In this document: in pieces, positions 3,715-59,945 of the stretch
Layout: each line of letters opens with the position of its first letter
Position numbering within the stretch: the first letter of the stretch is position 1
Source of the DNA: a virus
DNA: 64,000 nt
IMG/VR virus record: IMGVR_UViG_3300021963_007958
Strand: one strand, 5' to 3'
Notes under the pieces: generated by a model
Seen by the model: only the letters and a program-made list of their open reading frames with translations
Database searches by the model: none
What the model was told of the DNA's origin: nothing
Position numbers and translations under genes: made by a program

Positions 3715-5076
3715 ATGAACAATAAATTTGTACTGGAATCTTTTCGAGCTTATCTTGAATTTACAGGGGAAAAAATCACAGAGGGTAAAAGCGATTTTGC
3801 TCTAGATCTAAATTTTGTTAAAGGATATGTCGATAAGATACTCGAAAAACAAAAGGAGTTGACCTCGAAATCCTCAATATTCTCCAAATACGCAGATTCA
3901 CCAAATCCATACGAATCCTGGATTAAAGAATGGAAAGGAAGAAAATCGAATGCAGGTAAAGATTGGCCAGATAAAAAATCTCCTACTGCATTACACGTCT
4001 ATGGATCATTTGCAGCTCCATATCTATGGGATAAATTAACTCCTGAGCAGAAAGACGAAACTTATAAAGACCTAATGGGTCTTATGAAGGGAAGCGGATA
4101 CTCAACAGAAAAAGAATTTAATAAACTTCTAAAGGATAAAGATCAGGTTGGAGCAAAACCTTATGTTGCTGTTATCCCATCTTTTGTAGAAATACCACCA
4201 ACAGAAATTTCTGTTCCTGGTAAAATTACAATAAATGGTATTGATGAAGGCATAGAGAATAAAGTTTTCAAAGATAATAGATGGGGTTCGGGTGACGATT
4301 CAGCAGGTGGAAAAGTAAATCCAGATGCCTTTCAAGATCCAGCAGTTCTAGCAGATATTAAATCCGAGATTGACAATTTTATGAAAAGTTTTTCCTCAGG
4401 AGAAATAAGTAAAATTATCTCTCTTAGAATAGAATCGTCTGCTTCGAGATACAGAAATACCAGTGATAACGGAGGAAAAGCAGAGAAATTATCTTGGGGC
4501 GAACTTGCTTATAACAGAGCAATAACTATTTTAAACTTATTTAGTGAGGCAGCAGACACCTATAATCTTTCAGAGGAGAAAAGAAAAGAACTAAAAGAAA
4601 AAGTTTTAATAGATTCCAAGGGGTCTAATGGGGACGGAACTAGTGGTCCTAATCCTCCAACTCCTTTAAAATTTGGTTACTACGACGAAAAATCAACATT
4701 TGTTTTGGATAACGGAACATTTGGAAAGGGAAAATCACCAGAAGAAAATAGAAAAACAGTAGTAAAGGCAGTATTGGGAGAAGGAGGAAAACCTACTGGA
4801 AAGTATACAACTGCATCTATTGATCCAGAAGCTACAGCAGAAAGCTATGGTAAATTTAGATATGTTAACTTTGTCATTGAAGCAGAAACAATGTCCAAAG
4901 AACCAGATTTAATAGTTAAAGTACCGGGAGCAAAAGAAGCAAAATACACTCCGAAGGTTGGATTTCCTAAAACTACTTCAGGACCACCAATAAAGAGGAA
5001 GAAAAGAATAAGGAGAATTATAGGAATTCCCGGAACAGGGACAAGTCCATTCTCGTGTCCAGGAGATCAATTCTAA
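3715..5076 (+). CDS. putative virion protein with OmpA-C-like domain (start revised to ATG 3715)
   Basis: ATG follows GATATATA; SLRIESSASR...ELAYNRAITI...RYVNFVIE resembles the OmpA_C fold; CTS-like N-terminus. Confidence 0.55.
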   Translation: MNNKFVLESFRAYLEFTGEKITEGKSDFALDLNFVKGYVDKILEKQKELTSKSSIFSKYADSPNPYESWIKEWKGRKSNAGKDWPDKKSPTALHVYGSFAAPYLWDKLTPEQKDETYKDLMGLMKGSGYSTEKEFNKLLKDKDQVGAKPYVAVIPSFVEIPPTEISVPGKITINGIDEGIENKVFKDNRWGSGDDSAGGKVNPDAFQDPAVLADIKSEIDNFMKSFSSGEISKIISLRIESSASRYRNTSDNGGKAEKLSWGELAYNRAITILNLFSEAADTYNLSEEKRKELKEKVLIDSKGSNGDGTSGPNPPTPLKFGYYDEKSTFVLDNGTFGKGKSPEENRKTVVKAVLGEGGKPTGKYTTASIDPEATAESYGKFRYVNFVIEAETMSKEPDLIVKVPGAKEAKYTPKVGFPKTTSGPPIKRKKRIRRIIGIPGTGTSPFSCPGDQF

Positions 5077-5093
5077 TCCAAGGAATCATATAC

Positions 5094-5123
5094 AAAAAAA
5101 CCCGACTAAAAATCGGGTTTTTT
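5094..5123. terminator. bidirectional intrinsic terminator
   Basis: A7-CCCGA-loop-TCGGG-T6 between convergent genes. Confidence 0.85.
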
Positions 5124-5138
5124 GTTTGGAAATAAATT

Positions 5139-5678
5139 TTAGATTCCGAAAGTAATAACGCAGAAGTACCTTATTCCTGGTTCTCCTTCGAAGATGTAGT
5201 TTTGATCCTTTACAATTTTAATCCCAACTTTATGAGCATCTTTATGAATCATTGCTTCGTTGTGTCCGGGGCTAAGTTTAAAAGACTCTATTATTTTTTT
5301 GGCAAGGTCTTTATTGAAATAGTTAAATCCTTTTAAAGATCCCTTTCCGCCTAAAGTAATTTCTTGTCTACCAAATGGGCAATCCAAACCAGAGAAGTGT
5401 TTAATTCTTTCATCTGGATCTGAGATTTCATCAAATCCAGGGAAGTCTTGAAATTCAAAGTGAGTTACACTATCAGATAAAAGTTCATATTTTACTTGAT
5501 GTTCAGCAGCTTTACAAAGACCTTTGTCGATCACTAATGGGCTTAGACCTTTAGAAACTCTATATTCGTTCAAATATTTAATAGTCTTTAATTCAGAAGA
5601 GTCTTGAGCTAAAGCTAAGATTGGAATTAAGAAGGAGATTAGAGCTAATTTTTTCATGATCTTTGATGTTTGGTTCAT
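5139..5678 (-). CDS. CAP/SCP-domain secreted protein (start 5678 or 5657)
   Basis: Signal peptide MKKLALISFLIPILALAQ; LNEYR..GL.PL..D..L..AA..H; SPGH..AM. Confidence 0.8.
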   Translation of the reverse strand: MNQTSKIMKKLALISFLIPILALAQDSSELKTIKYLNEYRVSKGLSPLVIDKGLCKAAEHQVKYELLSDSVTHFEFQDFPGFDEISDPDERIKHFSGLDCPFGRQEITLGGKGSLKGFNYFNKDLAKKIIESFKLSPGHNEAMIHKDAHKVGIKIVKDQNYIFEGEPGIRYFCVITFGI

Positions 5679-5706: not shown

Positions 5707-6987
5707 TCAGGAATAAATTGGAAATCTTTGCATTAAATTTCTAGCTCTTTCTTTTGTTGTTATCAGAACTTGTGGGTTGTTGTGATTCCGAAGTGCTGTG
5801 TCAATTAAATCTGCAATTATCGCCATCTCCTTCTCTTTCAATCCCCGCGTAGTAACGGCAGCAGTTCCGATTCTAATCCCGGAGGTGACAAAAGGGCTTC
5901 TAGTCTCGAACGGAACCGTGTTTTTATTCACCGTGATGTCACACTTAACGAGAGTGTCCTCAGCCATCTTGCCGGTTAAACTATTAAACTTGGACCTCAG
6001 ATCTATCAGCATCAGATGATTATCGGTTCCTCCTGAGATAATAGAATATCCCATCTCGGCTAAATGTCCTGCAAGCGTCCTAGAGTTCTTTATTACCTGT
6101 TCACAGTATTCTCTAAAGTCATCACTAAGTGCTTCTTTAAACGCTGCTGCTTTAGCTCCTATAATGTGTTCTAAAGGTCCTCCCTGAGTTCCAGGAAAAA
6201 CTGCTCCATCTAAAATTGAACTCATCATCTTGATATCTCCCTTTAGAGTCTTTTCACCAAATGGATTTGCGAAGTCTTTTCCCATCATAATAACTCCTCC
6301 TCTTGGACCTCTTAGAGTCTTATGAGTTGTCGTGGTTAAAATATGACAGTGAGGGACCGGATCGTTTAATAGTCCACTTGCAATCAAACCTGCAGGATGA
6401 GAAATATCTCCCATCAAAATTGCTCCAACCGAGTCTGCAATAGATCTAAATCTTTCATAATCCCAGTCTCTAGAATATGAGCTAGCCCCGCAAATGATTA
6501 ATTTGGGTCTTTCCCTCTTTGCTATCTCCTCTATCTTGTCGTAGTTTAGTAGACCAGTCTCCTCATCAACTCCATAAAAAGATGGGGTGTAGTTCTTGCC
6601 CGAAAAATTAACAGGGGATCCGTGAGTCAAGTGCCCTCCGTGACTGAGATCAAATCCTAAGATTTTATCGCCCGGTCTCAGAACTGCTAGCATCACAGCT
6701 GCATTTGCTTGGGATCCTGAATGTGGCTGAACATTAGCCCATTCCACACCAAATAGCTTCTTTAATCTGTCGATAGCTAGCTGTTCAACCTTATCAACAA
6801 TCTGACATCCTCCGTAATATCTACGGCTGGGAAGTCCTTCGGCATATTTATTGGTTAGAATACTACCTGCAATGTCCATTATTTGCTGGCTGACAAAATT
6901 CTCCGAAGCGATCAGTTCAATCCCTTCTTGTTGTCTCTTGAGTTCCTGATCGATCAGATCAAAAATCTCTTCATCTTTAGAGTGCAT
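5707..6987 (-). CDS. glyA: serine hydroxymethyltransferase
   Basis: [37 protein letters not shown]-lysine motif. Confidence 0.98.
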
Positions 6988-7430: not shown

Positions 7431-8585
7431 TTATTTTCTAAGAGTGTATTTCTTAGCTAGAAAATCGGAAAGATCGTCGATGTTTTTCTTCTTCTGAGCT
7501 ACCTTTTTAGCAGCTTCCTCTTCAGCAGATTTAACTTGAGCATCCCCGGAATACCTCAGATCGTTTATATCCGTTGTTCCTGCAATCACGTCAGTGGATT
7601 TCTTTCTTCTGACATTTGTTTCTGCCTGTTTAAGTATTCCTTCCCTAACCTTGTCGATTATATCTTGTGCGGAATTTTCAAACTCTGAAGCTGCTGAAAT
7701 TGGCTGATATGTGGAAACTAATTTTTGTCTTAGCGCATCAGCTTTTGGGTTCAATGCAGTTATCTCAGCATCGAACTTTTGAAGCTTTTTATAGTAGCCC
7801 TCTGCTGCTCTTTCTCCGATATTAGGGATATCATTCTGCATGATATTCTTAACCTTGTTGACATTGGGAACTATGTAAGTATCCTGAAAAGAAATAACTT
7901 CATTTTTTGAGTCCGGATAAGCAACTGCCAGATTATCTAGCATGTCATACATATTTAGAAGTTTTGCCCCTGTTGAGTCTGCTAATCTTAGAAGATCCTG
8001 AGGTGTAGGGGGTACAAATTCTTGACCTTCAGAGACGAAAGAGAGATTCTCTTGGAGAGCAAGAGGTTTCATTGCCTTAAGGATCTCATCCATGATAGAC
8101 ATTGACTTTGTTTTCTCTTCCGGGGTAAAGTTTTTAAGGGCTGCATTTGAAGCGGACCTTAAAAACTCAGTAGCTTGAGGAAGATTCTCAGTTTCCTGCC
8201 CATAGTCATATTGCCCTCTTGCTCCAAATTCCCCTGGCTTAACCGGAAGATCCGAAAGAGAAGCAACTTTTCCTTGTAGAAATTTGGACATTTTAACAAT
8301 CATGTCCCATCTTGCTGTTGGATCTTTTACTTTGATAATCTGGTCCATCAACTTTGGCCAGTTGTTAGGATCAAAAAATCCAGGTTTTTGGGCAAAGAAG
8401 AATCCGTAAAGACCAAAGATCTCGGAAAGCTTATAAGCGATGCTTCTGTAAGAGTCCTCTTTCCCTTTTTTGTCCGGACCTAAAGTTGAATCCTCATTAA
8501 CAGAAAAAGTCCCACTTAAGGGACTTGTTTCTGTTTCCGATAGGCGGAAAGATTTAAAATTTTGTATGTTTGAAAGTCTTCTCAT
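7431..8585 (-). CDS. helical putative internal virion protein
   Basis: CTS-like N-terminus MRRLSNIQNFKSFRLSE; downstream of two related large genes. Confidence 0.55.
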   Translation of the reverse strand: MRRLSNIQNFKSFRLSETETSPLSGTFSVNEDSTLGPDKKGKEDSYRSIAYKLSEIFGLYGFFFAQKPGFFDPNNWPKLMDQIIKVKDPTARWDMIVKMSKFLQGKVASLSDLPVKPGEFGARGQYDYGQETENLPQATEFLRSASNAALKNFTPEEKTKSMSIMDEILKAMKPLALQENLSFVSEGQEFVPPTPQDLLRLADSTGAKLLNMYDMLDNLAVAYPDSKNEVISFQDTYIVPNVNKVKNIMQNDIPNIGERAAEGYYKKLQKFDAEITALNPKADALRQKLVSTYQPISAASEFENSAQDIIDKVREGILKQAETNVRRKKSTDVIAGTTDINDLRYSGDAQVKSAEEEAAKKVAQKKKNIDDLSDFLAKKYTLRK

Positions 8586-8603: not shown

Positions 8604-10721
8604 TTATTTTAGAAGTTTAAGAATTTCTTCTTTCATGGTATCTCCTTTAACGGACATAGTCTTGGTTCCTACACTTTTAACCTCTCCCGCTAGGGTTTCA
8701 GCTCCACCAATCCAAGGTTTTTCGTCCAGTTCATAAAGTTCCTGGAATCTTTTGATTGCTGGTTTTCCGTCTTTCATCTTTTTACCGCTTAGAGCTTTAA
8801 GAATAGTCAAAACGTAAGCAAGATCCGATTCTTTTACATATCCATCGAGAGCATCTACTACTCCTTTAACTCCGTTTCTTCTGTCCTTAAGAAGATCAAT
8901 AGCAGTTGCTGCTACTGCACCACCAAGAGGAAATCCAAGGAATGCTGCATACTTAGCTGCTGGAAGAATGGTATTGATAAAAGAAGATAGACCTGAAGTT
9001 TCTCCTAGAATGTCATCATCAGTAAGAGTTCCTTCTGTTTCATTCGCTTTTGCAGTATATTTTTCTTTCAGAAGATCAGCTAGAATTTTATAAGCCCACT
9101 GTCCTCTAGGAGCTTTTGGATCGTTTAATTTATTTGGAGTTTCAGCTCCATTTCTTGTATCGTAAAGACCTCTTAGAGTATCTTCTCCTGCAAGACCATC
9201 TACGTGTTTACCGTTAAGCTTTTGGAATGATTTAACTCTTTCTACCGTATCGTCTGTGTAATTCTTCTCATCTGCAGTTTGTCCTACGATTCTATTGATT
9301 GCAACCACTACGTTTCCGGTGTCCCCCTTCTTATAAAGGAGTTTTACCTTTGCTGGTCCTGCTTCTTTAGAAGGATCGTATTTGGATTTTTTAGCAGCCT
9401 GATTTGATGAAGAAGCCTTAGAAGCCTTAACTGCTGCTTGGACATCAAAAGCTTCAGAAATCCCCGAATAAGCATCAAAGCTAAGAATTCTAGATTCTTT
9501 AATAGCTTCATCTTTCTTCAATTCTGCATAAAGTTCATTTGTGATATCAGGAGACGATGGATTTTCAAGACCGTATCCAGACTTCATAACTTTTACGATT
9601 TCTGCCGTACTACGACCAAATTTACCGTCTGTTCCCATTGATTTAAACTCAGGAAGATTTGCGACCGACTTTACGTTTTTGAATTTATTCATTACCAACT
9701 CCTGGAATTCTTTAACTTTTCCGTTCTCTTCGTTAGATTTTTCTGGGTTGTATTCTACAACTGTTGCCTTTAAACCTGCTTTTTTAGTTGCTTCTTCCCC
9801 TTCTTTATTTTGAAGGTAGGTGATCTCTTTATCTTTTGCATCCTGAACTAGAGCTAAAGCCTGAACTAGAATTGCTGCTGCTTCTTTGTTAGTAGCATCT
9901 TGCTTAAGCATTTTTTCTGCAATTTTATCAGCTTCGGTTGGGATTTCCGCAAGTCTTGTAGCTGCTTTTTTAATCTCGTCTTTGCTGATCTCGTTATTCT
10001 TCTTGTCTAAAAGATCTCCCATCTTTGCAGCAATCTGGTTTACTTCAGTTTGGAGTTTTTGTACGTCTGCTGCCATTCCTGGAGTCTGAGCTAGAGAAGC
10101 AAGTTTTGCAGTGACAAGAGTTACCTGTTTGGATACATCTTCGATCATTCCCTTTTTACCTTGAAGAATTCCTTCGAAAATTTCCTCATCATCTCCGTGG
10201 TAAAAAGAATCATTCACCACTTTTGCTAGATCTGTCTTAAGATCATTGGACTTGGCAGAGTCTTGAATTCCTTTTAGATAAGAATCTATCTTAGCGTTGA
10301 TAAAGTCGTTAATGTGCTTAAGTTCTTCTGGTTGATCTTTGTATTGGTTGATCAAAGCTCCAAGAGCGTCTGCTGCTTTAGTTCCGGCAGCAACCCAAGC
10401 ATCGATAGCCTCTGGTGCTCCCTTTGTTGTGTTTTCTGCGGAAGCCTGCTTAACTTTGCCCATAATTTTAATAAGGGCTGCTGGCTTATCTGCTACGGGA
10501 GCAGATTTTATAGAAGCCATGTCAGCATCTATGTTCGCATCGTAGGATTTAGCAGGGAAAGTCAATTCTGAGCTGTATGAATTTAAAGCAGTAGTCAAAA
10601 TAAGACCTAAAGTTTGATCATAAAGCTTGCTAGCTTCTGTCGGCTTAGCAAGAAGCCCTGGCCCTGCTGCGTCTGCTTCATAAAGAGCGCTAAAGCTGGA
10701 GAAGTCGTGTATTTTTCTCAT
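8604..10721 (-). CDS. large putative virion/ejection protein with peptidoglycan-binding domains
   Basis: VKEFQ...DGKFG..T and KKGDTG..V...VKSFQ..NG..VDGLAG..T PG_binding_1-like motifs; hydrophobic Gly-rich segment; paralog of 10771-12411. Confidence 0.65.
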   Translation of the reverse strand: MRKIHDFSSFSALYEADAAGPGLLAKPTEASKLYDQTLGLILTTALNSYSSELTFPAKSYDANIDADMASIKSAPVADKPAALIKIMGKVKQASAENTTKGAPEAIDAWVAAGTKAADALGALINQYKDQPEELKHINDFINAKIDSYLKGIQDSAKSNDLKTDLAKVVNDSFYHGDDEEIFEGILQGKKGMIEDVSKQVTLVTAKLASLAQTPGMAADVQKLQTEVNQIAAKMGDLLDKKNNEISKDEIKKAATRLAEIPTEADKIAEKMLKQDATNKEAAAILVQALALVQDAKDKEITYLQNKEGEEATKKAGLKATVVEYNPEKSNEENGKVKEFQELVMNKFKNVKSVANLPEFKSMGTDGKFGRSTAEIVKVMKSGYGLENPSSPDITNELYAELKKDEAIKESRILSFDAYSGISEAFDVQAAVKASKASSSNQAAKKSKYDPSKEAGPAKVKLLYKKGDTGNVVVAINRIVGQTADEKNYTDDTVERVKSFQKLNGKHVDGLAGEDTLRGLYDTRNGAETPNKLNDPKAPRGQWAYKILADLLKEKYTAKANETEGTLTDDDILGETSGLSSFINTILPAAKYAAFLGFPLGGAVAATAIDLLKDRRNGVKGVVDALDGYVKESDLAYVLTILKALSGKKMKDGKPAIKRFQELYELDEKPWIGGAETLAGEVKSVGTKTMSVKGDTMKEEILKLLK

Positions 10722-10770
10722 ATTGAATTTATTTTTAATTTTCTTATATATCTTTTTTTTTGAAGATTTT

Positions 10771-12411
10771 TTATTTCTTTTCCCCTTCTTTTTTGAGATA
10801 GATGTCCAATAAGTCTTTATCTATCCCCTTCTTAACTCCAGTTGTTGGAATGATGGTAGATTTAAGTCCCATTGCAACGGTATTTTTCTTCTGAGTCTCG
10901 TTGTACTTTGAAAAATTATCCCAGCTAGTTCTAAAGATAGTTCTAAATAGCTTCTTACCTTCTTCGCTCGGTTCAAAGTCTTTACCTAGGATATAGTCAA
11001 TCCCCTCTTTGTTGTCTGAATAAACCTCGTCTACTGTCTTCTTGAGTTCATCTAGAAGTTCTCCCGGGGTTGGAAGATCTTTCTTCTTCTCTTCCGCTTT
11101 CTTTTCTCCTGTTGCTTCTAAGAACTTATTAACGTCAAATTTAACTTTTGCTTCATTAATCTCTTCAAAATCAGTGAAGGATTTAAATCTTCCAAAAGAA
11201 AAGGATTCATTTTGCTTAGTAGATCCTGAATAGGAAAATACCTTATTCAGGAATTCATCGGTGATATCGGAAGTCTTGTCGTCCATGCCAAATCCAGCCT
11301 TAAGTCCTTTAATGATCTTTGCTGTATTGTCTCCAAAATAACCATCCCCTGCAAATTTTCCTTCTGCAAACTTTTTAAAGTCTTCAGACCCTTTAATTAT
11401 GTCTTTGAACTTTCTGATTACTTCTTCTTGGAAAGATTTTACCACTTGATTTTTCTTTCCTTTTACATCATCTTGTTTGACAGTTCCTTTGAACCCTATT
11501 GCATCTTTTGCAGATTTGTTCCAGTTATCTTCGGTCTCTTTTTCTTCTTTTGCCTTCTCTACGAATTTTTTATCATTCTCAGTAGCAGCTTCTAGAGACT
11601 TGAGTGCATCAACAAAAAGAGCTGCTGCCTCTTTATTTGTTTCGTCCTCTTTTGCTAAAGATTCGGACTTCTTAGATAGAAGAGTAGGGATTTCTGAAAT
11701 TTTAGCTGCAATTTCTTCTAGTCTATCCCCGTCGATATCTTTCCTTTTCATATCCACCATCTTACCAACCTCTGCGCTTAGTTGGGTGACTTCATCCTGA
11801 TATTTCTTAACATCTGCCTGCATTCCTGGGATGGCAGACATATCTTTAAGGATTGACATCACTACAGTTATTTCTTTTGAAATGTCTTTAATCTTTCCTT
11901 TCTTACCACTGAAAACACCTTCATTGAGATATTCAAAGCTTTCGTTCTTTTTAGATAAAGCTTGTTCTACTTCCTTTTTGAGATCATTTTCTTTAGAAGA
12001 AGATTGGAGATTTTGTTTTTGGGTATTGATAAAATCTGTGATGGATTTTTCGATCTCCTCTTTATTATCAGGGAGTTTTTCGATAATTTTACCAAGAGCA
12101 GCAATAAATTTTTCTCCTGCTGCTGTCCAGGATTCTCCTGCTGCTTTTGCTTCTGCACTGTCTTTATCGACTGCAGCTTTAACGTTTGCTAGGATTTTCT
12201 TATATGAATCAACTCCTGGAGCTTTTGCAACTGAATCCAAGTCTGCAATAATCTTAGCATCATAGGGATCTTCAGTTAGCTTCAACTGAGACATATATGA
12301 AGTATTAATATAGGACAGGATTTGTTTTAGAAGACCCAGATAGGGTTTTTCTTTGTTTTCCTCTGCTTCGTAAATTTTTGAGAAGGAGGAGAAATCATAA
12401 ATTCTTTTCAT
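10771..12411 (-). CDS. large putative virion protein with PG-binding-like domain, paralog of 8604-10721
   Basis: Shared N-terminus DFSSFSxxYEA, shared GKKGxIxDxSK block, VKSFQ...DGYFG.NT. Confidence 0.65.
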   Translation of the reverse strand: MKRIYDFSSFSKIYEAEENKEKPYLGLLKQILSYINTSYMSQLKLTEDPYDAKIIADLDSVAKAPGVDSYKKILANVKAAVDKDSAEAKAAGESWTAAGEKFIAALGKIIEKLPDNKEEIEKSITDFINTQKQNLQSSSKENDLKKEVEQALSKKNESFEYLNEGVFSGKKGKIKDISKEITVVMSILKDMSAIPGMQADVKKYQDEVTQLSAEVGKMVDMKRKDIDGDRLEEIAAKISEIPTLLSKKSESLAKEDETNKEAAALFVDALKSLEAATENDKKFVEKAKEEKETEDNWNKSAKDAIGFKGTVKQDDVKGKKNQVVKSFQEEVIRKFKDIIKGSEDFKKFAEGKFAGDGYFGDNTAKIIKGLKAGFGMDDKTSDITDEFLNKVFSYSGSTKQNESFSFGRFKSFTDFEEINEAKVKFDVNKFLEATGEKKAEEKKKDLPTPGELLDELKKTVDEVYSDNKEGIDYILGKDFEPSEEGKKLFRTIFRTSWDNFSKYNETQKKNTVAMGLKSTIIPTTGVKKGIDKDLLDIYLKKEGEKK

Positions 12412-12457
12412 TGGACATCTTTTATTTATGTCCTATATATCTCGGAGTAAGATGCTT

Positions 12458-36909: not shown

Positions 36910-36921
36910 GGATATATATCC
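36910..36921. promoter_or_regulatory. palindromic divergent late promoter GGATATATATCC
   Basis: GATATATA on both strands between divergent CTS-bearing genes. Confidence 0.65.
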
Positions 36922-38534: not shown

Positions 38535-38552
38535 AACAAAGTCCAAGAGACA

Positions 38553-39488: not shown

Positions 39489-39489
39489 C

Positions 39490-42528: not shown

Positions 42529-42566
42529 CCAGGACGATTCTTATTTCTGTCCTGTATATATCCAAA

Positions 42567-52219: not shown

Positions 52220-52327
52220 ATGAAAAATGTTCTAGTTTATGGATTTCTTGTACTGCACATTCTAGCAGTCTTTTTAGTCAAAGCCCCGTTAGGCCTCGTT
52301 AAGAGATTAAAGCCCAATATCCGATAG
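52220..52327 (+). CDS. 35-aa hydrophobic/basic peptide
   Basis: GATACATA-AGAGGA-ATG then MKNVLVYGFLVLHILAVFLVKAPLGLVKRLKPNIR. Confidence 0.4.
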   Translation: MKNVLVYGFLVLHILAVFLVKAPLGLVKRLKPNIR

Positions 52328-53188
52328 ACTTCCCTGAAGATCTGTAACTTCCTTCGCTTCTTCATCAAATCCTTTTGGCGGAACATATCCCTCTGACTTT
52401 AAATGATTATAAAAGTCTAAAACTTCATTTTTTGGATATAGTCTAGAGTTTCCAAATCCCTTTGCTGTTGAATCATCAGGAAGCTGACACTGGGAAAGAG
52501 CATATTGAATTGTGGCAGGATCTTTTTCTACTTTTTCGATAAATCTCTTTTTGATCTCGTCATAAATTCCATATGGTAGGCTAAGAATAAGATCCATAGT
52601 CGAATCATAGTGCCCACCGTAAGGATTGCAGTCTTTCTTCACCCCAATAATTCCTAGATCCCCATCTTTATAAAGTTCTTCTAGATCACGGGAGAATAGG
52701 TCCATGATATGACTTATGGATCTAAAGTCAGGGGTGGCAGGTCCTGAGAACATGGTAAAATATATGACCTTAAAGATCTGGTTCCACGACTCTTTATCGT
52801 TCAAATAAACAATAAATTCAGATTTATGAGTTAGTCTAGTGTCATTAACGTAAATTTGTGCAGTGTCATTAGAGAAGGAATATCTACTCGAAGGTCTATA
52901 GACTTCGAAGATTCGATTGAAAGTTCCTCTTCGTCCAGAAACAGGAACAGAAAAAAACCAATTGTATCCACCCTTCAGATCTTTTCTGATCCTATCTAAT
53001 TTGAAATCCGGAAATGCCTGCTTGATTGATTTATACCACGGAAGATCTTGAAAGTCTTCCTCTTTTGCGTCGTACAGTTGGTCATTCGAAGGAACCTCAT
53101 AGAAGTTGTCCAGAAGGTATTTCTTGTTCTTAGATTTATAATCGTTAGACTCGTTGACGTACTCGTCAAAATTTAGGACCTTTTTCAT
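52307..53188 (-). CDS. hypothetical protein with CTS-like leader and C-terminal tag
   Basis: MKKVLNFDEYVNES ... DLQGSLSDIGL*. Confidence 0.7.
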   Translation of the reverse strand: MKKVLNFDEYVNESNDYKSKNKKYLLDNFYEVPSNDQLYDAKEEDFQDLPWYKSIKQAFPDFKLDRIRKDLKGGYNWFFSVPVSGRRGTFNRIFEVYRPSSRYSFSNDTAQIYVNDTRLTHKSEFIVYLNDKESWNQIFKVIYFTMFSGPATPDFRSISHIMDLFSRDLEELYKDGDLGIIGVKKDCNPYGGHYDSTMDLILSLPYGIYDEIKKRFIEKVEKDPATIQYALSQCQLPDDSTAKGFGNSRLYPKNEVLDFYNHLKSEGYVPPKGFDEEAKEVTDLQGSLSDIGL

Positions 53189-53763
53189 TACTCTATCTTT
53201 CTAACTCTAATTTCTGCTTTTAGACTTTTGTCTATCGTCTCCTTCACTTTTTTTGGACTCGATCTCCATCCGGTGTCGTAGAACTCCTGAAGCTCGGAAT
53301 CGCTCATCGAGTCCAAGAGTTTACTGTGAATCTCCTCCCATTTTTCAATTAGGACTTGAACTATCTCCTTCTTTACTTCCTGCAGAAGTGCATAGAGAGT
53401 TGGAACTCCGGCTGCAATCTGCTGGACATTCTCTTTGGACACAATCTCTAGAACCTCCGGACCTACATTTTTAGAGACACGTGGGTCGTCAGTATCTAGA
53501 GTCTGCTCAAATTCTCCCCTTCTGATCTTCTGAAGAGCAAACTCCTTATTGGCGTTCTCCGATCCCCTATCCGGAAAAACCGTGATGGCAAAAACCTCCA
53601 TATATGCTGTCCACCAGGAAGGGTGTGTTAATTGCTGAGGGACACATCCGTCTACCCAGCAGGACACTTTTACCTCTTTAGCCTGTCCAATAGAAACCAA
53701 ATCCCCTAGAAGATCTTCTAGTTCTTTGTCTGTGTAGTCTTCGTAGAGTTTAATGTGTTTCAT
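53188..53763 (-). CDS. paralog family member (leader + tag + body)
   Basis: MKHIKLYEDY..ELEDLLGDLVSIGQ. Confidence 0.7.
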   Translation of the reverse strand: MKHIKLYEDYTDKELEDLLGDLVSIGQAKEVKVSCWVDGCVPQQLTHPSWWTAYMEVFAITVFPDRGSENANKEFALQKIRRGEFEQTLDTDDPRVSKNVGPEVLEIVSKENVQQIAAGVPTLYALLQEVKKEIVQVLIEKWEEIHSKLLDSMSDSELQEFYDTGWRSSPKKVKETIDKSLKAEIRVRKIE

Positions 53764-53773
53764 CTTCGTGGGA

Positions 53774-54313
53774 TTAGATCTTGGTGATTCTAACGTTGTA
53801 GCCGATGTTCTCGTTCAGATGTCTAAGTTCACCGTTAGATGGATTGGGGACTCTGGCTACCATTAGACTTTCTATTTCGTCTATCAGAATAAATTGAATG
53901 GTATAAAGACTTCCATTAACGTCCCGATCTATGTGATCTGCGGGAAGCTTCTGAACTCTCTTTGCAAGTTCGATCGTGTGCTCTTTGCTGAGTACTGGAA
54001 CCAGCTCCGGAGCAGACTCGAACATCTGATCTAAATAGGTATTATACTCAACTTTAAAGTCTCCGGCTAGAACCTTCTCGAATGCTTTTTCCTGTGCTAC
54101 TGCTTCATCGTCTATACAGACAACTTCAGTCTCAATATTTCTAAACGCCCACTCTGGCCAGTCAAAGGTGTGTTTCAGCTTGTCTGGAACCATCACAAAG
54201 ACGTTGCACTCGACCTTGAACTTTGACACCTGCCCAACGTCTGATAGTGTATCAACTAGATCCTGAAGATCTTCTGCGTCATAAAATTCGTTATACTCTT
54301 TAATGTGTCTCAT
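53774..54313 (-). CDS. paralog family member (leader + tag + body)
   Basis: MRHIKEYNEF..DLQDLVDTLSDVGQ. Confidence 0.7.
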   Translation of the reverse strand: MRHIKEYNEFYDAEDLQDLVDTLSDVGQVSKFKVECNVFVMVPDKLKHTFDWPEWAFRNIETEVVCIDDEAVAQEKAFEKVLAGDFKVEYNTYLDQMFESAPELVPVLSKEHTIELAKRVQKLPADHIDRDVNGSLYTIQFILIDEIESLMVARVPNPSNGELRHLNENIGYNVRITKI

Positions 54314-55116
54314 TATAGTCCAATATCGGATAGATCTGCAACCAGATCCTTGTCTTCTCTAAATCCAGGAGGAAGATCCCTAATTTGATCCAAAATGTCG
54401 TTCAGCATTTTTCTGTGATTTGAAGGAACCTTAGCTAACTCAATCGCCATCTTCTCAGGAGCCTTTCTGATCTCTTCACCAAGCACTTCTGGGCTCAGCT
54501 TATTTTTAAGAATCCATTCGATGGACCCATCGGGATCCTTCTTGATCACATAATCACCAACCACGATCGACAGGTAGATTCCAGTCCAAGTCTCCTGTCC
54601 ACTGAGGACATCTTCTAGATCGTCTCTCAAAAAACCAGCTCTTATCGGGTTTCTGTCGACCACTGAAAATTTCGGGGATGGATTAAATCCTCCAAGAAGT
54701 TCTTTTGTCATTCCCTCTAACGAAACAAGAAGATTGTTCTCAAGAGAGATGGTCTTCTTCACAAGGCCAATTCCTTCTAGGGTTCTAAATTTATTTCCTC
54801 CTGCATTAAGGTGTGTTCCAATCTCTCTAGGAAGTTCGGATGCAGATTCCAGTCCTGCTCCGTTAACATTAAAGAATCCACCAACCTTGCCAAATTTAAT
54901 TCCAAGAAGACCTTCTTTCCATCCGTCTTTCAGAATGAAGTTTCCTCCAACGTTCACTAGACCAGTTTCAGGGTCTACCCACCAGGCGTCCTGTGGGTGA
55001 ACTCCCTTGTTGTTCCTCTGATAGTACTTACAAGAAGCATTCAGAAGGTCCCTCTGTTCGGGTGTCACCCCTTCCTGAAGAGATTCAAACATTCTATAGG
55101 TCTTAAGGTAGATCAT
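54313..55116 (-). CDS. phage LRR protein (~3 repeats) with C-terminal tag
   Basis: WVDPETGLVNV.G cap, LEG repeats, ends DLVADLSDIGL. Confidence 0.7.
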   Translation of the reverse strand: MIYLKTYRMFESLQEGVTPEQRDLLNASCKYYQRNNKGVHPQDAWWVDPETGLVNVGGNFILKDGWKEGLLGIKFGKVGGFFNVNGAGLESASELPREIGTHLNAGGNKFRTLEGIGLVKKTISLENNLLVSLEGMTKELLGGFNPSPKFSVVDRNPIRAGFLRDDLEDVLSGQETWTGIYLSIVVGDYVIKKDPDGSIEWILKNKLSPEVLGEEIRKAPEKMAIELAKVPSNHRKMLNDILDQIRDLPPGFREDKDLVADLSDIGL

Positions 55117-55133
55117 TCACGTATATATTCACA

Positions 55134-55159
55134 AAAAAACCCGGCAGAAGCCGGGCTTT
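55134..55159 (-). terminator. intrinsic terminator downstream of ferritin gene
   Basis: CCCGGC-ttct-GCCGGG-T7 on minus strand. Confidence 0.8.
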
Positions 55160-55179
55160 CAAAAATTATAAAATTAGAA

Positions 55180-55800
55180 TTATCCAAAATATTTGTCTTC
55201 GAACATTAGAAGATCCAACTTGTTGTTGTAGTCAACCAGCATAAGAGCATTAAGAAGATCGGAGAAGACTCCAACGGAGTGGTTCTGAATGTCCACAAAC
55301 TCCTGAATGAAGTTGAAAGTTGCAGGGTGCATCCCATCAACTTCAACTTGAATCTGAGAGTAAGACTGAAGAAGATTGTATTCAAACACATAGGAAGCAT
55401 TGACACAGTCGATCAAAGACTTCATCGTGTTGGGCACAGTTGCTACTGGAATCTGAGGAAGAACATTCCACTGAACCATATAGTCCTGAAGCTTCTGAGC
55501 GTGAGTTAATTCGTCTGCTGCTTCCTCTTCGAAGAAAGCACCTGCTTTAACATACCCAACGTTCTTGCACCAGTTGGCTGCATTCTTATAGATGAGGTGT
55601 GCGGTATACTCGTCCTTTAGTCTTGCTTCTAGAGCAGAGACGATGGAAGCATCTAGAGTCTTAGGAGTCATAGGGGTTCCCGCTGTATTAGAAGCTACTG
55701 GAGCTGCAACTACTGTTACGGAGTCCATGTCCATAGTTGGAGCGTCGTCCCAGCTTTCTAGAACTTCTTTAAATGTTTTGGTTGGGTTTAGTTTTGACAT
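55180..55800 (-). CDS. ferritin with CTS-like N-terminal extension (start revised to 55800)
   Basis: E..A...Y...A.WC...GY..A..FF...A..E..HA..L..Y ferroxidase pattern; GATATATA at 55819-55826 precedes ATG 55800. Confidence 0.85.
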   Translation of the reverse strand: MSKLNPTKTFKEVLESWDDAPTMDMDSVTVVAAPVASNTAGTPMTPKTLDASIVSALEARLKDEYTAHLIYKNAANWCKNVGYVKAGAFFEEEAADELTHAQKLQDYMVQWNVLPQIPVATVPNTMKSLIDCVNASYVFEYNLLQSYSQIQVEVDGMHPATFNFIQEFVDIQNHSVGVFSDLLNALMLVDYNNKLDLLMFEDKYFG

Positions 55801-55828
55801 TCGTGATGTTATTTTGGCTATATATCCC

Positions 55829-56386
55829 TTACCTCGTCTTGTATTCAACGACGTTTATCGGCTTCCTAATTGTGTAGAACTCGCCCTTTCTGTGGCTTGG
55901 ATCCGACGGTGGGGCAATGTAAACTTTAAAGGTCGACTCCGCATCTTCTGAATAGCCATAAGGACCTCCGATCTCTTTCGAAAGAGCCAAGGATTCTGAA
56001 CCCAGATCATCTGCAAAAGCATCCAGAGCATTTCCCGATTTTCCCGCCTTCAGATAGATCTTCTTGTAGGAGTCTTTGTCTCTTAGATAGTCTTTTGCAA
56101 TCTCCTGAATTTCCTCTTTTGAATAGTAGAGTCTAGAATCTTCTATCGGAAAATATTCAAATTTTCCATCTGCAATCAGCTGCAGAGCTGCGAGAGCATC
56201 CTGATCTTCATCTCCGGTTGCATAGAACCTATCGGTCGTGAGAATCTTATTGGCGTCGTAGTACTCGTCCTTAGAAACATACTGCAACCAGATGCTCGCC
56301 TTCGCTGGGTTTGTCTGTCCAATTCCCTCCAGATCTCCCAAGAGTCCTTTAATGTCGTGTTCTTCGTATTCTAGAATGTGCTTCAT
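55829..56386 (-). CDS. paralog family member (leader + tag + body)
   Basis: MKHILEYEEHDIKGLLGDLEGIGQ. Confidence 0.7.
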   Translation of the reverse strand: MKHILEYEEHDIKGLLGDLEGIGQTNPAKASIWLQYVSKDEYYDANKILTTDRFYATGDEDQDALAALQLIADGKFEYFPIEDSRLYYSKEEIQEIAKDYLRDKDSYKKIYLKAGKSGNALDAFADDLGSESLALSKEIGGPYGYSEDAESTFKVYIAPPSDPSHRKGEFYTIRKPINVVEYKTR

Positions 56387-56423
56387 GCTATTTCTCCATT
56401 AAATCCCCAATACGGGGATCTTA

Positions 56424-57128
56424 TTAACTTAAAGTTATCGTAACGGTGGTTCTTTTATTAGTATAAATTGTGTTCCCGGAAGTGTCTACGACTTTCACTG
56501 GTGTAAATGGGGAAGGAGGGGATCCTCCAGTTTCTGAGTAAGAAGATGGATTATATGTAGTTCTTGTTGTTCCTGCTCCAACTCCGTCGGTATCAGATGC
56601 AGAAACTGAAAAATTGACGGTGTAGGTATTACCTGGAGGTGGAGGAGGAGAAAAAGTTATAGTCTGAACTGCAATTCTGTATCCACCAGACCCAACTATA
56701 CTTACGGTAAGAGGTCCATTTGCAGTCCCACTGCTGGAACCTCCTCCTCCCGCTAAATTCCCATTAAAAACCATCCCTATGGGACTATCGTTTGAGTCCC
56801 AAATCTGAACGTCCATTATTACTCCGTTTGCAGAGTTGTTGGTGACGGTGAAGGTGGTAACCATGTCTATGTCTCGGGTATAATTGTACCAGTTAGACAT
56901 CGTCATATTTTGATTTGAGTTGTATGGATCATAAATGGCGTTCTTAGCCGACGTCGCGTTGTTAGAAGCCATATTTAAATTGTGGTACATTAGTGCATTC
57001 CCGGGATATGAGTTTGCAGCAGAGGAGTAAAAGTCGTTCTTGAGCTCCAGATTCGATGCAGGATTGACAAAATCCAGCTCGGTGTTGATGTCGGACATCT
57101 TAATGTCTCCTGATGCAGGGGTTGTCAT
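56424..57128 (-). CDS. putative virion surface/decoration protein
   Basis: MT.P.SG.I.MSDINTEL N-terminus typical of phage structural appendages; S/T/G/N-rich beta body. Confidence 0.55.
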   Translation of the reverse strand: MTTPASGDIKMSDINTELDFVNPASNLELKNDFYSSAANSYPGNALMYHNLNMASNNATSAKNAIYDPYNSNQNMTMSNWYNYTRDIDMVTTFTVTNNSANGVIMDVQIWDSNDSPIGMVFNGNLAGGGGSSSGTANGPLTVSIVGSGGYRIAVQTITFSPPPPPGNTYTVNFSVSASDTDGVGAGTTRTTYNPSSYSETGGSPPSPFTPVKVVDTSGNTIYTNKRTTVTITLS

Positions 57129-57129
57129 A

Positions 57130-57357
57130 TTAGAACGATGATATTTTAGTTGATACGCCAGACAGAGAGAGTTGGTCTTTAATCCCCGACGTGAACAGGT
57201 GGGAGAATTTCAATGGCACATAAACCCAATACTCGTAGGTTGATCCCCCGTCGGACGTTAGTGCTGTAAAGCTATACTTTCCCACAGGAATTCCATTTTG
57301 AGAAAGAATCTCCCTCACTTCTGGAATTTTTGATAGCATTGCAGTCTCTGAATTCAT
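57130..57357 (-). CDS. hypothetical protein (start revised to 57357)
   Basis: ATG follows GATATATA 57376-57383; the longer track ORF runs through a terminator and a candidate ncRNA. Confidence 0.55.
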   Translation of the reverse strand: MNSETAMLSKIPEVREILSQNGIPVGKYSFTALTSDGGSTYEYWVYVPLKFSHLFTSGIKDQLSLSGVSTKISSF

Positions 57358-57393
57358 GATGTAATTTAGTTTATCTATATATCTCTCAAACCC

Positions 57394-57429
57394 AAAAAGA
57401 AAGACGGGAGTAGCGAATTCCCGTCTTTC
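57394..57429 (-). terminator. intrinsic terminator
   Basis: GAAAGACGGGA/TCCCGTCTTTC stem followed by TTTTT on minus strand. Confidence 0.8.
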
Positions 57430-57482
57430 AGTAGTCGTAACTACTCCGGTCCTAAAAGGGGACATAAAGTCCGCCGGATGTC
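57394..57482 (-). ncRNA. candidate small structured RNA
   Basis: GATATATA promoter 57484-57491, three-way junction + UACG hairpin, then intrinsic terminator. Confidence 0.55.
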
Positions 57483-57516
57483 TTATATATCTTTATTGTT
57501 TGGTCCTAAATCTTTC

Positions 57517-58392
57517 TTACAGACCAACGTCCGAAAGATCACCCAGGAGATCCATCTCTCCTTCGTATCCCTTCGGAAAGACCAACCTCTCTCGGGTCTC
57601 CCTAAAATCCGGATGGTTCCAGACTTCCTTCAGTCTCATCATCGTCCCTTCTGGGTCCTTCTGGATCTGTCGGTTCAGCGTCTCTGGAGCCAGGAAAGGT
57701 GTGATTAGCTTCTGAGCATCCGGACTTCCTGACCTAAGAATTTCCATCCAGCCTGCAGGATTCCATTTCCCTTTATCGAGATAAAATGCATCACAGTCGA
57801 AATCCCCTCCCACCTCCTGCGGCGCTCCTTCCAGAGTCTCCAGACGGTTGTTGTGGCAAGAGAAATCCCCTCCCACCTTCTTCGGAGCTCCTTCCAGGGA
57901 TGCCAGACTGTTAAAGGAGCAAGAGAAACCACCTCCCACCTCCTGCGGCGCTCCTTCCAGAGTCTCCAGACGGTTGTTGCCACAATAGAAATCTCCCCCC
58001 ACCTCCTGAGGTGCTCCTACCAGAGACTTCAGATTGTTATCTGAACAACGGAACACACCTCCGACCTTCTGGGGTGTTCCTTCCAGAGACTCCAGCCTGT
58101 TTTCGTCGCAATCGAAATATCCTCCCACCTCCTGGGGTGCTCCTTCCAGAGTCTCCAGACGGTTGGTGTGGCAACTGAAATTCCCTCCTATAACGCCAAA
58201 CCTAATTCCTTTCAGAGTCTCCAGCCCCATAGAGCTGCAATGGAAATCCCCATCAATGTCCACCAGCCCGGTCGACGGATCTAATTTCCATTGTCCTTGG
58301 GTGCACATGTTCAGAAATGCTTCTTGTTCTGAGGTTAATCCCTTCTCAGATTCAAATATCTGGTATGTCTTTAGATGTTTCATTCTTTTCAT
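57517..58392 (-). CDS. phage LRR protein (six 21-aa repeats) with leader and C-terminal tag (start 58392 or 58383)
   Basis: LxxLEGAPxxVGGxFxCxxN x6; MKHLKTYQIFES; ends DLLGDLSDVGL. Confidence 0.8.
   Translation of the reverse strand: MKRMKHLKTYQIFESEKGLTSEQEAFLNMCTQGQWKLDPSTGLVDIDGDFHCSSMGLETLKGIRFGVIGGNFSCHTNRLETLEGAPQEVGGYFDCDENRLESLEGTPQKVGGVFRCSDNNLKSLVGAPQEVGGDFYCGNNRLETLEGAPQEVGGGFSCSFNSLASLEGAPKKVGGDFSCHNNRLETLEGAPQEVGGDFDCDAFYLDKGKWNPAGWMEILRSGSPDAQKLITPFLAPETLNRQIQKDPEGTMMRLKEVWNHPDFRETRERLVFPKGYEGEMDLLGDLSDVGL
57790..58180. repeat. 63-bp coding tandem repeats (LRR units)
   Basis: 48-bp exact duplicate at 57806-57853 and 57932-57979 (126 bp apart). Confidence 0.9.
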
Positions 58393-58436
58393 GTTTTGTC
58401 GGACTCGAACAAGCTCCATTCTCTTAAATGCTTCAT
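58389..58436 (-). CDS. 15-aa leader-only mini-ORF MKHLREWSLFESDKT
   Basis: First ATG after AATATATA (58442-58449); its stop overlaps the LRR gene start (ATGA). Confidence 0.45.
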   Translation of the reverse strand: MKHLREWSLFESDKT

Positions 58437-58701
58437 GCTCTTATATATTCTTTTTAGACCGGGGTAATACCACCCACCATTCTCTCTGTTCTTCTCTGTT
58501 ATCTTAGACTCAAAGCGCCTGTAGAGGCATTTTGCTCGTCATTCATGTGCGCGTCTTGGGGCCCCTCGGGTTCCCCCACGAGACCCTAAAGTTTGGGCGG
58601 GTCTACCCCTAGGACTCCCCCTAAAGCTTGGGTTTGGGACTTCTGGGCCCATCTGGGCTAAGCTTGGGACCCCCCGCGGCGTCTAATCTAAGACGATTGA
58701 T

Positions 58702-59286
58702 TTATTGGATGTAGTTGATGCCAGACCCCTTCTGAAAGGGATTATCTAGATTGGCAGTGACGAGATACGGAGAGACCTGAGGACCAAGAAACCCATAGAC
58801 AAACACATCTGAAGCAGTCTCTTCGCTATAAGGGTATCTAGTCTTATTCAGTTGTCCCTGAAGAGCGTACTGCTGAGATCCGACCAAACCCTCCTTTATC
58901 TCCTGAAGGAGCTCGTCAATGGTGGAACAGGTCTTAGACAGAGACTGTACTCTCCTCTTCTCTATGAGATCAACAGCAACCTTGTTGCCGTTCTTGAGAC
59001 TTGCCCAGGATCTGGCATCTGGGTGGCTGGGTCTCACAAATTCTCCCTTCTGAATCTTCTCCAGCATAATTGTCTTGTCCTTGTTCTCATCACCGGTTCC
59101 GTAGAAGGGCTTGGTCTCTAGGAAGCACACGATCTCTGGGTTATAAGACCAGTAGTCGGACATGAGTCTGTAGGTGTTGAACCTTGCCCACAGTGTGCCC
59201 TTGTAAGACTTCATCTGACCAACAGAGTCTAGATTCCCCATGAGGTCTCTGAGGTCTGTTTCGTCGTATTCTAAGATGTACTTCAT
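58702..59286 (-). CDS. paralog family member (leader + tag + body)
   Basis: MKYILEYDETDLRDLMGNLDSVGQ. Confidence 0.7.
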   Translation of the reverse strand: MKYILEYDETDLRDLMGNLDSVGQMKSYKGTLWARFNTYRLMSDYWSYNPEIVCFLETKPFYGTGDENKDKTIMLEKIQKGEFVRPSHPDARSWASLKNGNKVAVDLIEKRRVQSLSKTCSTIDELLQEIKEGLVGSQQYALQGQLNKTRYPYSEETASDVFVYGFLGPQVSPYLVTANLDNPFQKGSGINYIQ

Positions 59287-59945
59287 AAATCCTTTAAGTA
59301 GATTCTTGGGTTTACAAGGTTTAACCCGTTAGTCAGATCCTCTAGGACAACCTTCTCAGAGTAGGCAGTCGCATGGTACAGAGAGGCATCTGGAGCAATC
59401 AGAAGATCTGGGTCTTGGTCTTCCCCGTAGACAAGAGCAACTCCGCCTCCTGGAGGTCGATAGTCAGCTGAGGAGTATCGGATGCTCATGAACTTCTCCC
59501 TCAGAGATTCTAGGGCTTCCCCTAAAGTCTTTCCCTCTTCCTCTTGGTCTTTAAAGAACTCCTGGAGGGAGGGCTTGTCTAGGAAAGCAACAGCCTTTCT
59601 AGAACTAACACGGTCCAAGTTGTGCTTGTCTTCTGGGTCAAAGGGATTATCAGAGACTAGGCTAGCCCAGTCTTGTCCTTGAATGGTTGGTCTGATGAAG
59701 TCCCCATTGGACAGAGAGTCTAAGATTATCTCCTGGTCTCCCAAGAGGGTTCCGGTAGACCAGAAGGGATCCCCTAGAGCAATGGGAACTCTCAGCTTGT
59801 TGGTGTAGCCTGCATAGTAGGTAAAGCTTGGGATCTCTACCCAGAGGGAATAGGTCCTCTTTGCAGACTGACCGACGGTCTCTAGGTCCCCCAAGAGATC
59901 TTGGATCTCGTGGTCCTCATATTCTAGGATGTGTCTAAGTCTCAT
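59283..59945 (-). CDS. paralog family member (leader + tag + body)
   Basis: MRLRHILEYEDHEIQDLLGDLETVGQ; GATATATA at 59982-59989. Confidence 0.7.
   Translation of the reverse strand: MRLRHILEYEDHEIQDLLGDLETVGQSAKRTYSLWVEIPSFTYYAGYTNKLRVPIALGDPFWSTGTLLGDQEIILDSLSNGDFIRPTIQGQDWASLVSDNPFDPEDKHNLDRVSSRKAVAFLDKPSLQEFFKDQEEEGKTLGEALESLREKFMSIRYSSADYRPPGGGVALVYGEDQDPDLLIAPDASLYHATAYSEKVVLEDLTNGLNLVNPRIYLKDL

Follow-up and report, generated by a model that had tools for sequence, protein, structure and literature searches.

In bacteriophage T4, the capsid-targeting sequence (CTS) is MKTYQEFIAE, in which residues 4 and 7 serve targeting and residues 8 and 10 serve processing (PMC9026906, PMC8442874). 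Leaders of this kind are an established mark of the internal proteins (IPs) of T-even phages, about ten of which are known, and Ip1-3 are injected and inhibit type IV restriction (PMC12373910, PMC3012670). In phiKZ, 201phi2-1 and SPN3US, head and ejection proteins bear long propeptides, which a gp21-related protease cleaves at [AS]-x-E (PMC5694885). We analyzed a 64,000-nucleotide stretch of DNA, hereafter the window, from IMG/VR virus record IMGVR_UViG_3300021963_007958, in which about 20 proteins had been predicted to begin with T4 CTS-like leaders. The leaders likely belong to a T4-type capsid-targeting propeptide system of unusually large scale, the scaffold of which is built of the same unit. 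Our reading of the literature, including a jumbo-phage genomics survey and the bS21 lake-phage paper, turned up no account of short CTS-like leaders for this lineage of huge phages.

All 20 N-termini quoted in the original prediction were present between positions 3715 and 59945, either at the start of an open reading frame (ORF) or at a plausible internal Met start. Enzymes were among the carriers, as stated there, but the figure of about 20 counted paralogs. All-against-all BLAST placed eight of the 20 proteins in two paralog families (B and C) and showed two more to be paralogous, leaving about 13 independent carriers. A strict core was defined as M-x-x-[ILVM]-x-x-[FYW]-x-x-[FYW], and the null expectation was obtained from 1000 shuffles of residues 2-16 of each ORF. 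With the first hydrophobic residue at position 4, 10 of the 88 window ORFs matched (13 with this residue at positions 4-7), compared with 0.2±0.5 after shuffling and a maximum of 3 in the 1000 shuffles. None of 342 internal Met residues in the window was followed by the strict motif.

Three other genomes were scanned in the same way. G001 (IMGVR_UViG_3300032236_001850) is a complete relative of 434,509 bp with terminal repeats, and 37 of its 615 ORFs had strict leaders (1.6±1.2 expected). In the first 400 kb of the 462-kb huge phage LR756500, 32 of 514 ORFs matched (1.9±1.4 expected), and the leader consensus, MKYI[KL]EYEEF[IL][LN]E[AN], was nearer still to T4. PTm1, a cultured phage of a Bacteroidota host (224.7 kb, 30% G+C), was checked as a possible cultured model; its 296 ORFs showed no aromatic-leader enrichment (2 observed, 1.0±1.0 expected).

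The anatomy of the leader was derived from ortholog-group alignments of 80 related loci. Its parts are a conserved hydrophobic-x-x-Ar-x-x-Ar segment (Ar, aromatic), a spacer of 0-10 residues, and a conserved [LIVT]-N-E or hydrophobic-x-E site immediately before the conserved mature domain. Between orthologs the pattern was kept while its residues varied, and the spacer changed in length through insertions and deletions. Some leaders preceded low-complexity linkers. The motif can be written as basic-x-[ILV]-x-x-[FY]-x-x-[FY], which corresponds to a predicted two-turn amphipathic element, and the site is mostly [LIV]-N-E with S, A, N or G as the next residue. Cleavage after [LI]-x-E had been proposed by analogy with T4; a Glu-ending site was present, but in this lineage it more often takes the form hydrophobic-N-E/[SA] (the slash marks the putative cut). 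A hydrophobic-N-E site lay within 14 residues past the core in 36% of window leaders (27-36% across leader sets) and in 3% of other N-termini. The leaders are 11-20 residues long, with 39 residues in gene 38553 (genes are named by their first coordinate).

The original prediction had advised looking for a gp21-like protease elsewhere in the genome. Contigs from ENA, JGI and Logan carrying identical proteins (six exact-protein look-ups) allowed a walk of 57 kb past the window start, and the protease was found about 56 kb before the window as part of a 690-aa protein (L021:8102-10174). The first ~200 residues of this protein matched Peptidase_S77 (PF03420; 31 bits, cutoff 27; E=2.2e-7), and it shared 24% identity with T4 gp21 (E=6e-7). 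GELDHPE aligned with GELNHPP and SISSRAAG with GVSSRGLG; the conserved residues matching His85 and Ser140 of gp21 are presumably the catalytic pair. The protease domain is followed by a helical region of 14 tandem 14-residue units, x-Y-S-E-Y-L-A-E-N-L-D-K-x-I, centred on Y-S-E-Y-[LIV]-A-E, and each unit likely holds a cut site. The spacing of Y-S-E-Y-L-A-E is identical to that of Y-Q-E-F-I-A-E in T4. The protease-scaffold fusion with 11-14 repeats was found in 44 of 44 relatives with a full ORF and also in LR756500-504.

The next gene encodes a gp23-type capsid protein (PF07068, E=8e-37). Its site segment, KYCHYHSLNE/SAGAY or KYCHYHSLNESAGAY, was invariant in 54 relatives. No Glu occurs from E43 to about residue 150, and the capsid maturation cut is therefore expected at or before L-N-E43/S. 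L-N-E/S thus appears to be the only plausible maturation site of the capsid protein, and the same motif ends many leaders. In a MAFFT alignment of the capsid N-terminus with T4 gp23, the T4 cut site could not be reliably placed. Immediately after the capsid gene, three genes carry leaders, as does one gene before the protease gene.

An eight-column profile was trained solely on G001 N-termini. It scored the T4 CTS at 11.6 bits, recovered IPII and IPIII from the T4 genome, and matched 11 of the 14 scaffold repeats (1.1 expected). Two exact MKTYQEFIAE copies were confirmed in T4 DNA. In G001 itself, 56 N-termini reached at least 8 bits (5.9 expected). Counted from the first aromatic residue, a Glu stood at +6, as between Y4 and E10 of T4, in 21 of 49 G001 leaders and 5.5% of controls. 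Since the G001 profile matches both the scaffold repeats and the T4 CTS, the leader, the scaffold unit and the T4 CTS appear to be one pattern, Ar-x-x-Ar-aliphatic-x-Glu. The protease-scaffold of PTm1 is fused too, but its repeat is different and Trp-rich; I-N-E/S-type capsid sites are kept, and two short leaders, MKLFETINES and MGLLDHVNEA, were seen. With two positive lineages and one negative, it is suggestive that the aromatic leader set accompanies the Y-x-x-Y scaffold repeat. In T4, the 54-aa hypothetical protein gp61.1 (AF158101 18966-19130, - strand) begins MKTFKEFIKE and scored 13.9 bits, compared with 11.6 bits for the CTS of IPII and IPIII.

GATATATA occurred 14 times in the window, each copy 6-37 nt upstream of a start codon and in the correct orientation. 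Nearly all leader genes had been predicted to lie behind this sequence or in operons from it, and this was borne out: 14 of 16 motif-defined leader genes (88%) did so, compared with 18 of 72 others (25%; p=5e-6). In G001, it stood directly before 42% of leader genes versus 7% (p=1e-13) and was the 8-mer most concentrated upstream of ORFs, where 66 of its 92 copies lay. Outside the window, GATATATA precedes the protease-scaffold/capsid operon, the sheath gene, the neck gene and other structural genes. The assignment of leader-bearing genes as late genes is supported by this putative late promoter. The G001 8-mers TATATTTG/ATATTTGC, which resemble the Bacteroidota -7 element, and GTAATTAA were also concentrated upstream of ORFs and are candidate early and middle promoter classes.

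Among the unrelated carriers in the window, Pfam identified a MoxR AAA+ ATPase (AAA domain starting at residue 148), a ferritin (domain starting at residue 55), a peptidoglycan-binding protein (PG_binding at residue 486) and a DUF2201 metallopeptidase-like protein. These domains begin well past the leader. In the MoxR protein (36954), PF07728/PF00004 matched from residue 148 and phrog_1297 matched with E=2e-57; the G001 ortholog (41% identity) begins MKKRIFNFQDYVNES. The leader of the 28663 protein has diverged in its G001 ortholog but is kept. In the 38553 protein, the leader-like segment RVKSFSQFVVENLGPTLNE/S occupies residues 21-39, with the core from residue 22, and not the extreme start; the motif has the identical offset in G001. 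Canonical leaders in G001 precede RNase_T exonuclease, CHAP, OmpA, Tlde1/YkuD, SLT, RimK ATP-grasp and MoxR domains, and most leader carriers belong to no known family. A head-loading tag on wall-acting enzymes recalls ejection proteins, such as T7 gp16 with its transglycosylase domain.

The leaders resemble the T4 CTS of IPII and IPIII, to which the propeptides of IPI and Alt are related and which gp21 removes, in several respects. Both are N-terminal peptides of ~10-20 residues on unrelated, late-expressed proteins, with two aromatic residues three apart followed by aliphatic-x-Glu. In both cases the genome also encodes a protease of gp21 type, a capsid protein of gp23 type and a scaffold with many hydrophobic-x-E sites. 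The scale differs: a 434-kb genome has 37-56 carriers (6-9% of its ORFs) and the 64-kb window about 13 independent ones, compared with three IPs in T4 and about ten in the T-even phages together. The leaders here also have an extra hydrophobic residue before the aromatic pair, often a spacer of variable length, and a preferred hydrophobic-N-E/[SA] site, and their carriers include sizeable enzymes. In T4, protease and scaffold come from separate genes, whereas here one polypeptide combines the protease with a scaffold of CTS-like repeats. The function of the T4 CTS has been demonstrated; the present system is known from sequence alone.

The phiKZ-type phages share a large head with ~50 protein species, many of them thought to be ejected, cleavage after Glu, and propeptides thought to target the prohead (PMC5694885). 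Those propeptides are mostly 80-160 residues long with no short consensus, whereas the leaders here have 11-20 residues and a clear consensus, with Asn before Glu and an aliphatic residue before Asn. We did not class the leaders as long propeptides of that type. Unlike the phage here, the phiKZ-type phages have no recognised scaffold protein. The T4 core proteins gp22, gp67 and gp68 are likewise small, helical and made late; their genes adjoin those of the protease and the capsid protein, and they are cut at hydrophobic-x-E sites. The leader genes just after the capsid gene occupy the place expected for such core proteins. No sequence similarity to gp22, gp67 or gp68 was detectable, however, and the scaffold here is a domain of the protease polypeptide.

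Because about 20 late genes begin with a tag closely matching the T4 head-loading signal, dozens of proteins, some of them enzymes, are probably packaged in the virion of this phage. In the mechanism that we infer, leader proteins would be made late, alongside the structural proteins, and the aromatic motif would dock them on a prohead core of scaffold fused to gp21-type protease with 11-14 Y-S-E-Y-[LIV]-A-E units, the leader acting as one free scaffold repeat. Once the shell had closed, the protease would cut after the leader Glu, as in the scaffold repeats and at capsid L-N-E/S. The mature proteins would stay in the head. Some may be core proteins, and others may be delivered with the DNA, namely cell-wall enzymes, the AAA+ ATPase and its partner, and ferritin, with an exonuclease and an ATP-grasp ligase in relatives. 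Ejected cargo and degraded core proteins cannot be separated from sequence. More tentatively, a whole clade of 340-460-kb Bacteroidota phages might address 37-56 proteins per genome, the products of ~6-9% of its genes, to the prohead by one short zip code, a free copy of the scaffold repeat; we consider this possible and do not press it.

Several observations weigh against this interpretation. About one quarter of the strict leaders have no hydrophobic-x-E site within 20 residues, and the regular-expression sets hold false positives, for example a DnaQ-like exonuclease whose ExoI motif fits. The 38553 protein and its ortholog carry the motif 15-20 residues in from the start, and the family B starts, which mostly have neither a second aromatic residue nor a clear N-E site, are weaker examples. 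The clade has no cultured member, and the leader system is read here from sequence. At least 50 different head proteins are plausible only by analogy with the ~50 proteins of phiKZ and SPN3US (PMC5694885). The likeness between leader and scaffold repeat could also reflect a shared protease site alone and not docking.

The leader might be a docking peptide for another late process, cut or uncut, such as phage AAA+ machines or incorporation into the tail or baseplate. The phage encodes ClpB/ClpA-like (29208-31316) and BCS1-like (47429-48667) ATPases, and Iyer et al. raised, as a speculation, a role for phage BCS1 in bringing folded proteins into heads (PMC7824862). One carrier adjoins the tail-tube genes. 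In addition, an AlphaFold2 model of the family B protein 55829 gave a predicted local distance difference test score below 50 for residues 1-23, while residues 26-185 folded at ~80-94; the conserved N-terminal 23 residues thus lie outside the predicted fold, which fits a docking peptide for any partner. However, the match is specifically to the head scaffold repeats and the T4 CTS, the leader Glu site matches the maturation site of the capsid protein, and the conserved carriers directly adjoin the capsid and protease genes. We regard docking to a different late machine as unlikely. A bias toward A+T-rich, weakly structured 5' coding regions suited to Bacteroidota translation start (K, N, I, F and Y codons) would account for the A/T-rich codons of all leader residues, in a host group that lacks Shine-Dalgarno pairing and with a phage that has its own bS21. 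The signal was nevertheless lost when the same N-terminal residues 2-16 were shuffled (37 vs 1.6 in G001; 10 vs 0.2 in the window), which ruled this bias out as the cause; PTm1, with its low G+C and Bacteroidota host, was not enriched, and the Glu site and variable spacing would be left unexplained. Such a by-product is extremely improbable.

For the 53-60 kb block, the shared start might be a conserved N-terminal segment inherited within paralog families B and C and not a portable address. BLAST grouped five genes into family B (53188, 53774, 55829, 58702 and 59283) and three into family C (41338, 54313 and 57517). The first 24 residues of family B (MKHILEYEEH..DLLGDLE.IGQ) are the best-conserved part of its alignment, with Y7, L15 and G23 invariant, and the missing second aromatic residue and N-E site of most members would agree with descent alone. 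On the other hand, in LR756500 many unrelated proteins have this same start (MKYILEYEE, then F-L-L-E-A) as their canonical leader, and G001 homologs of family C have canonical leaders; those of the 54313 protein begin MKNIKAYEIFES and MRRIKTFNELFEG. The segment also lies outside the predicted fold, and about 11 other unrelated carriers would be left unexplained. Common descent as the whole explanation of the block is thus quite doubtful. A fold search with family B gave no PDB match.

The original prediction also took internal and C-terminal copies of the leader as marks of polyproteins processed into several products. The quoted copies exist, but as a class they are no commoner than in shuffled proteins: the profile gave 1-2 internal matches in the window and 0.2-1.5 in shuffles, and the polyprotein idea was not upheld. 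The sole convincing internal copy occurs in the paralogs 8604 and 10771 (family A, 35.7% identity), near residue 410 (residue 411 in 8604), after Q-N-E/S and ending I-N-E/A. The N-terminal and internal copies of family A are kept across homologs of 48-96% identity, in which the rest of the protein is equally conserved. The 8604 protein had weak endolysin PHROG matches, and the 10771 protein had no relative in the IMG/VR search. The C-terminal copy on the FMN-reductase-like protein is probably not significant, as the G001 ortholog has no such C-terminal extension.

Huge phages have hundreds of genes of unclear role, and hardly any such phage has been cultured. If the head-targeting interpretation holds, the virion-delivered protein set would be readable from sequence in uncultured huge phages, and the cargo would include the proteins that are in the host cell as soon as infection begins, for example chaperones, anti-defence factors and enzymes that cut the cell wall. 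The delivered set would be a ready-made enzyme kit that enters together with the DNA and comprises cell-wall hydrolases, a pair of AAA+ chaperones, a nuclease, ferritin and an ATP-grasp ligase. We know of no structural explanation for how the T4 CTS finds the core, and the likeness between tag and scaffold repeat offers a concrete, testable model. As already practised with T4, foreign cargo could also be directed into large capsids by means of such tags.

The carriers and late promoters of the window are listed in Table 1. The start of the ferritin gene was placed at 55800 because of the promoter at 55819.

Table 1 Leader-bearing genes, related genes and late promoters in the window.
Position	Strand	Feature	N-terminus or leader (position)	Remarks
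3686-3693	+	GATATATA copy		22 nt upstream of the 3715 gene
3715-5076	+	453-aa protein, late gene	MNNKFVLE/S	Weak, short leader; no Pfam family
7431-8585	-	384-aa protein	MRRLSNIQNFKSFRLSE/T (8535-8585)	No Pfam family; downstream in the 10745 late operon
8604-10721	-	705-aa protein, peptidoglycan-binding domain	MRKIHDFSSFSALYE/A (10677-10721)	PF01471 E=1.6e-7
10745-10752	-	Late promoter		Of 8604-10721
10771-12411	-	546-aa K/E-rich protein	MKRIYDFSSFSKIYE/A (12367-12411)	Internal copy at residue 408 after QNE/S
12434-12441	-	GATATATA promoter		Of 10771-12411
28663-28986	-	107-aa protein	MKNLSSYGDFVQDLNE/S (28939-28986)	Downstream of bS21 gene; promoter 29196
29196-29203	-	Late promoter		Of bS21 gene and leader gene 28663
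32804-32811	+	Late promoter		Heads operon 32835, 33459, 34259, 34626
33459-34256	+	265-aa protein	MKRILSFEDYSNRANE/A (33459-33506), then S/D/E-rich linker	16.5 bits; operon of promoter 32804
34259-34639	+	126-aa protein	MTTHVQEYDSFLNE/S (34259-34300)	15.0 bits; C-terminal end is copy RLKRFDEFN
34626-35363	+	245-aa protein	MSLIKGFDEFLLE/G (34626-34664)	14.7 bits; spacing as in T4 CTS
35544-36437	-	297-aa FMN-reductase-like protein		PF03358; C-terminal leader-like copy VSSFSDYISK
36443-36892	-	149-aa protein	MKNIKFFEEFE/S (36860-36892)	Promoter 36913; G001 ortholog keeps leader
36911-36920	both	Two overlapping divergent late promoters in palindrome GGATATATATCC		Serve leader genes 36443 (-) and 36954 (+)
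36954-38534	+	526-aa MoxR-type AAA+ ATPase	MGKRVLDFDGYVQNHTRTNE/S (36954-37013)	Leader on 145-aa N-terminal extension
38553-39488	+	311-aa DUF2201_N metallopeptidase-like protein, KOW motif		PF13203 E=2e-23
40853-41341	-	162-aa protein	MMKHLLEYD	Weak leader, one aromatic; operon of promoter 42555
41338-42528	-	396-aa family C protein	MNKKIKTLLPFALYEE	Atypical N-terminus; promoter 42555
42555-42562	-	Late promoter		Of 41338 and 40853
52307-53188	-	293-aa protein	MKKVLNFDEYVNE/S (53150-53188)	15.5 bits; T4-like spacing
53188-53763	-	191-aa family B protein	MKHIKLYEDY, then DLLGDL..IGQ segment	
53774-54313	-	179-aa family B protein	MRHIKEYNEF	
54313-55116	-	267-aa family C protein	MIYLKTYRMFE/SLQE/G	
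55180-55800	-	206-aa ferritin-like protein	MSKLNPTKTFKEVLE/S (55756-55800), then low-complexity linker	PF00210 E=1e-18, residues 55-186
55819-55826	-	Late promoter		Of ferritin gene and leader-gene run to 52307
55829-56386	-	185-aa family B protein	MKHILEYEEHDIKGLLGDLEGIGQ	
57517-58383	-	Family C protein	MKHLKTYQIFE/S, if the start is the third Met of the open frame	14.4 bits
58702-59286	-	194-aa family B protein	MKYILEYDE	
59283-59945	-	220-aa family B protein	MRLRHILEYED	Promoter 59982
59982-59989	-	Late promoter		Of 59283 and 58702

The window (64 kb, 38% G+C) comes from a large, uncultured T4-type phage with lake bacteria as hosts. It encodes UvsX/RecA, a DnaB-type helicase, serine hydroxymethyltransferase, methylenetetrahydrofolate reductase, ClpB-like and BCS1-like ATPases and ribosomal protein bS21, and also contains a long island of glycosyl- and methyl-transferase genes. 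UvsX and the capsid protein shared 35-40% and 38-45% identity, respectively, with those of the metagenomic huge phages LR756500-504 and the Lak phages. The cultured relatives, at ~30% identity, are Tenacibaculum PTm1/pT24, Flavobacterium MaF61, Chryseobacterium MA9V and Sphingomonas PAU. IMG/VR contained 169 relatives with 69-89% capsid identity, on contigs of up to 434 kb. Searches for the exact window DNA gave no match in the phage collection, IMG/VR or the JGI contigs. Assemblies JGI 3300021961 and ENA ERZ27296343/44 contain this genome.

A three-gene set at 36954-40491 consists of the MoxR AAA+ ATPase, the DUF2201_N protein with KOW motif and a DUF2201 VWA-like protein; the first two bear leaders, in G001 as well. 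The MoxR ATPase and the DUF2201_N protein may be a chaperone-like pair addressed to the head. The bS21 gene (28990-29190, - strand; PF01165 E=4e-9) has GATATATA 6 nt before its start and a leader gene just downstream. Phage bS21 has been linked to late expression in Bacteroidota lake phages (PMC9723584), and its place behind a late promoter fits that link, though the neighbourhood differs here. A leader protein encoded upstream of a gp55-like sigma factor was considered as a sigma paralog and rejected, as BLASTP gave no alignment and Sigma70_r2 was found only in the 118-aa gene.

The family B proteins (53188-59945) carry an acidic segment, D-[IL]-x-x-L-L-G-D-L-E-x-[IV]-G-Q, after the leader-like start; it is conserved and predicted to lie outside the fold. 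Looser copies were seen at the start of 63397-63825 (TEDLETVGH) and in 51710-52186 (LEDIGLE). The G+C content is 0.47-0.48 at 56000-64000 and ~0.38 elsewhere in the window, and this block, where paralogs of families B and C lie together with small ORFs, may be of different origin. Serine hydroxymethyltransferase, methylenetetrahydrofolate reductase and a pyridoxal phosphate-dependent cysteine-synthase-like protein form a group of one-carbon/sulfur amino-acid genes (5707-6987, 42567-43526 and 43533-44435), of which the cysteine-synthase-like gene stands behind a late promoter. Outside the window, two tandem portal-like genes (L018:8372-9991, 539 aa, and 10001-11599, 532 aa) both begin MAGFL, and PF07230 is on record for the 532-aa protein. 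Two tandem tail-tube-like genes (L015:9435-9986 and 10001-10579) both begin MAGLPH.

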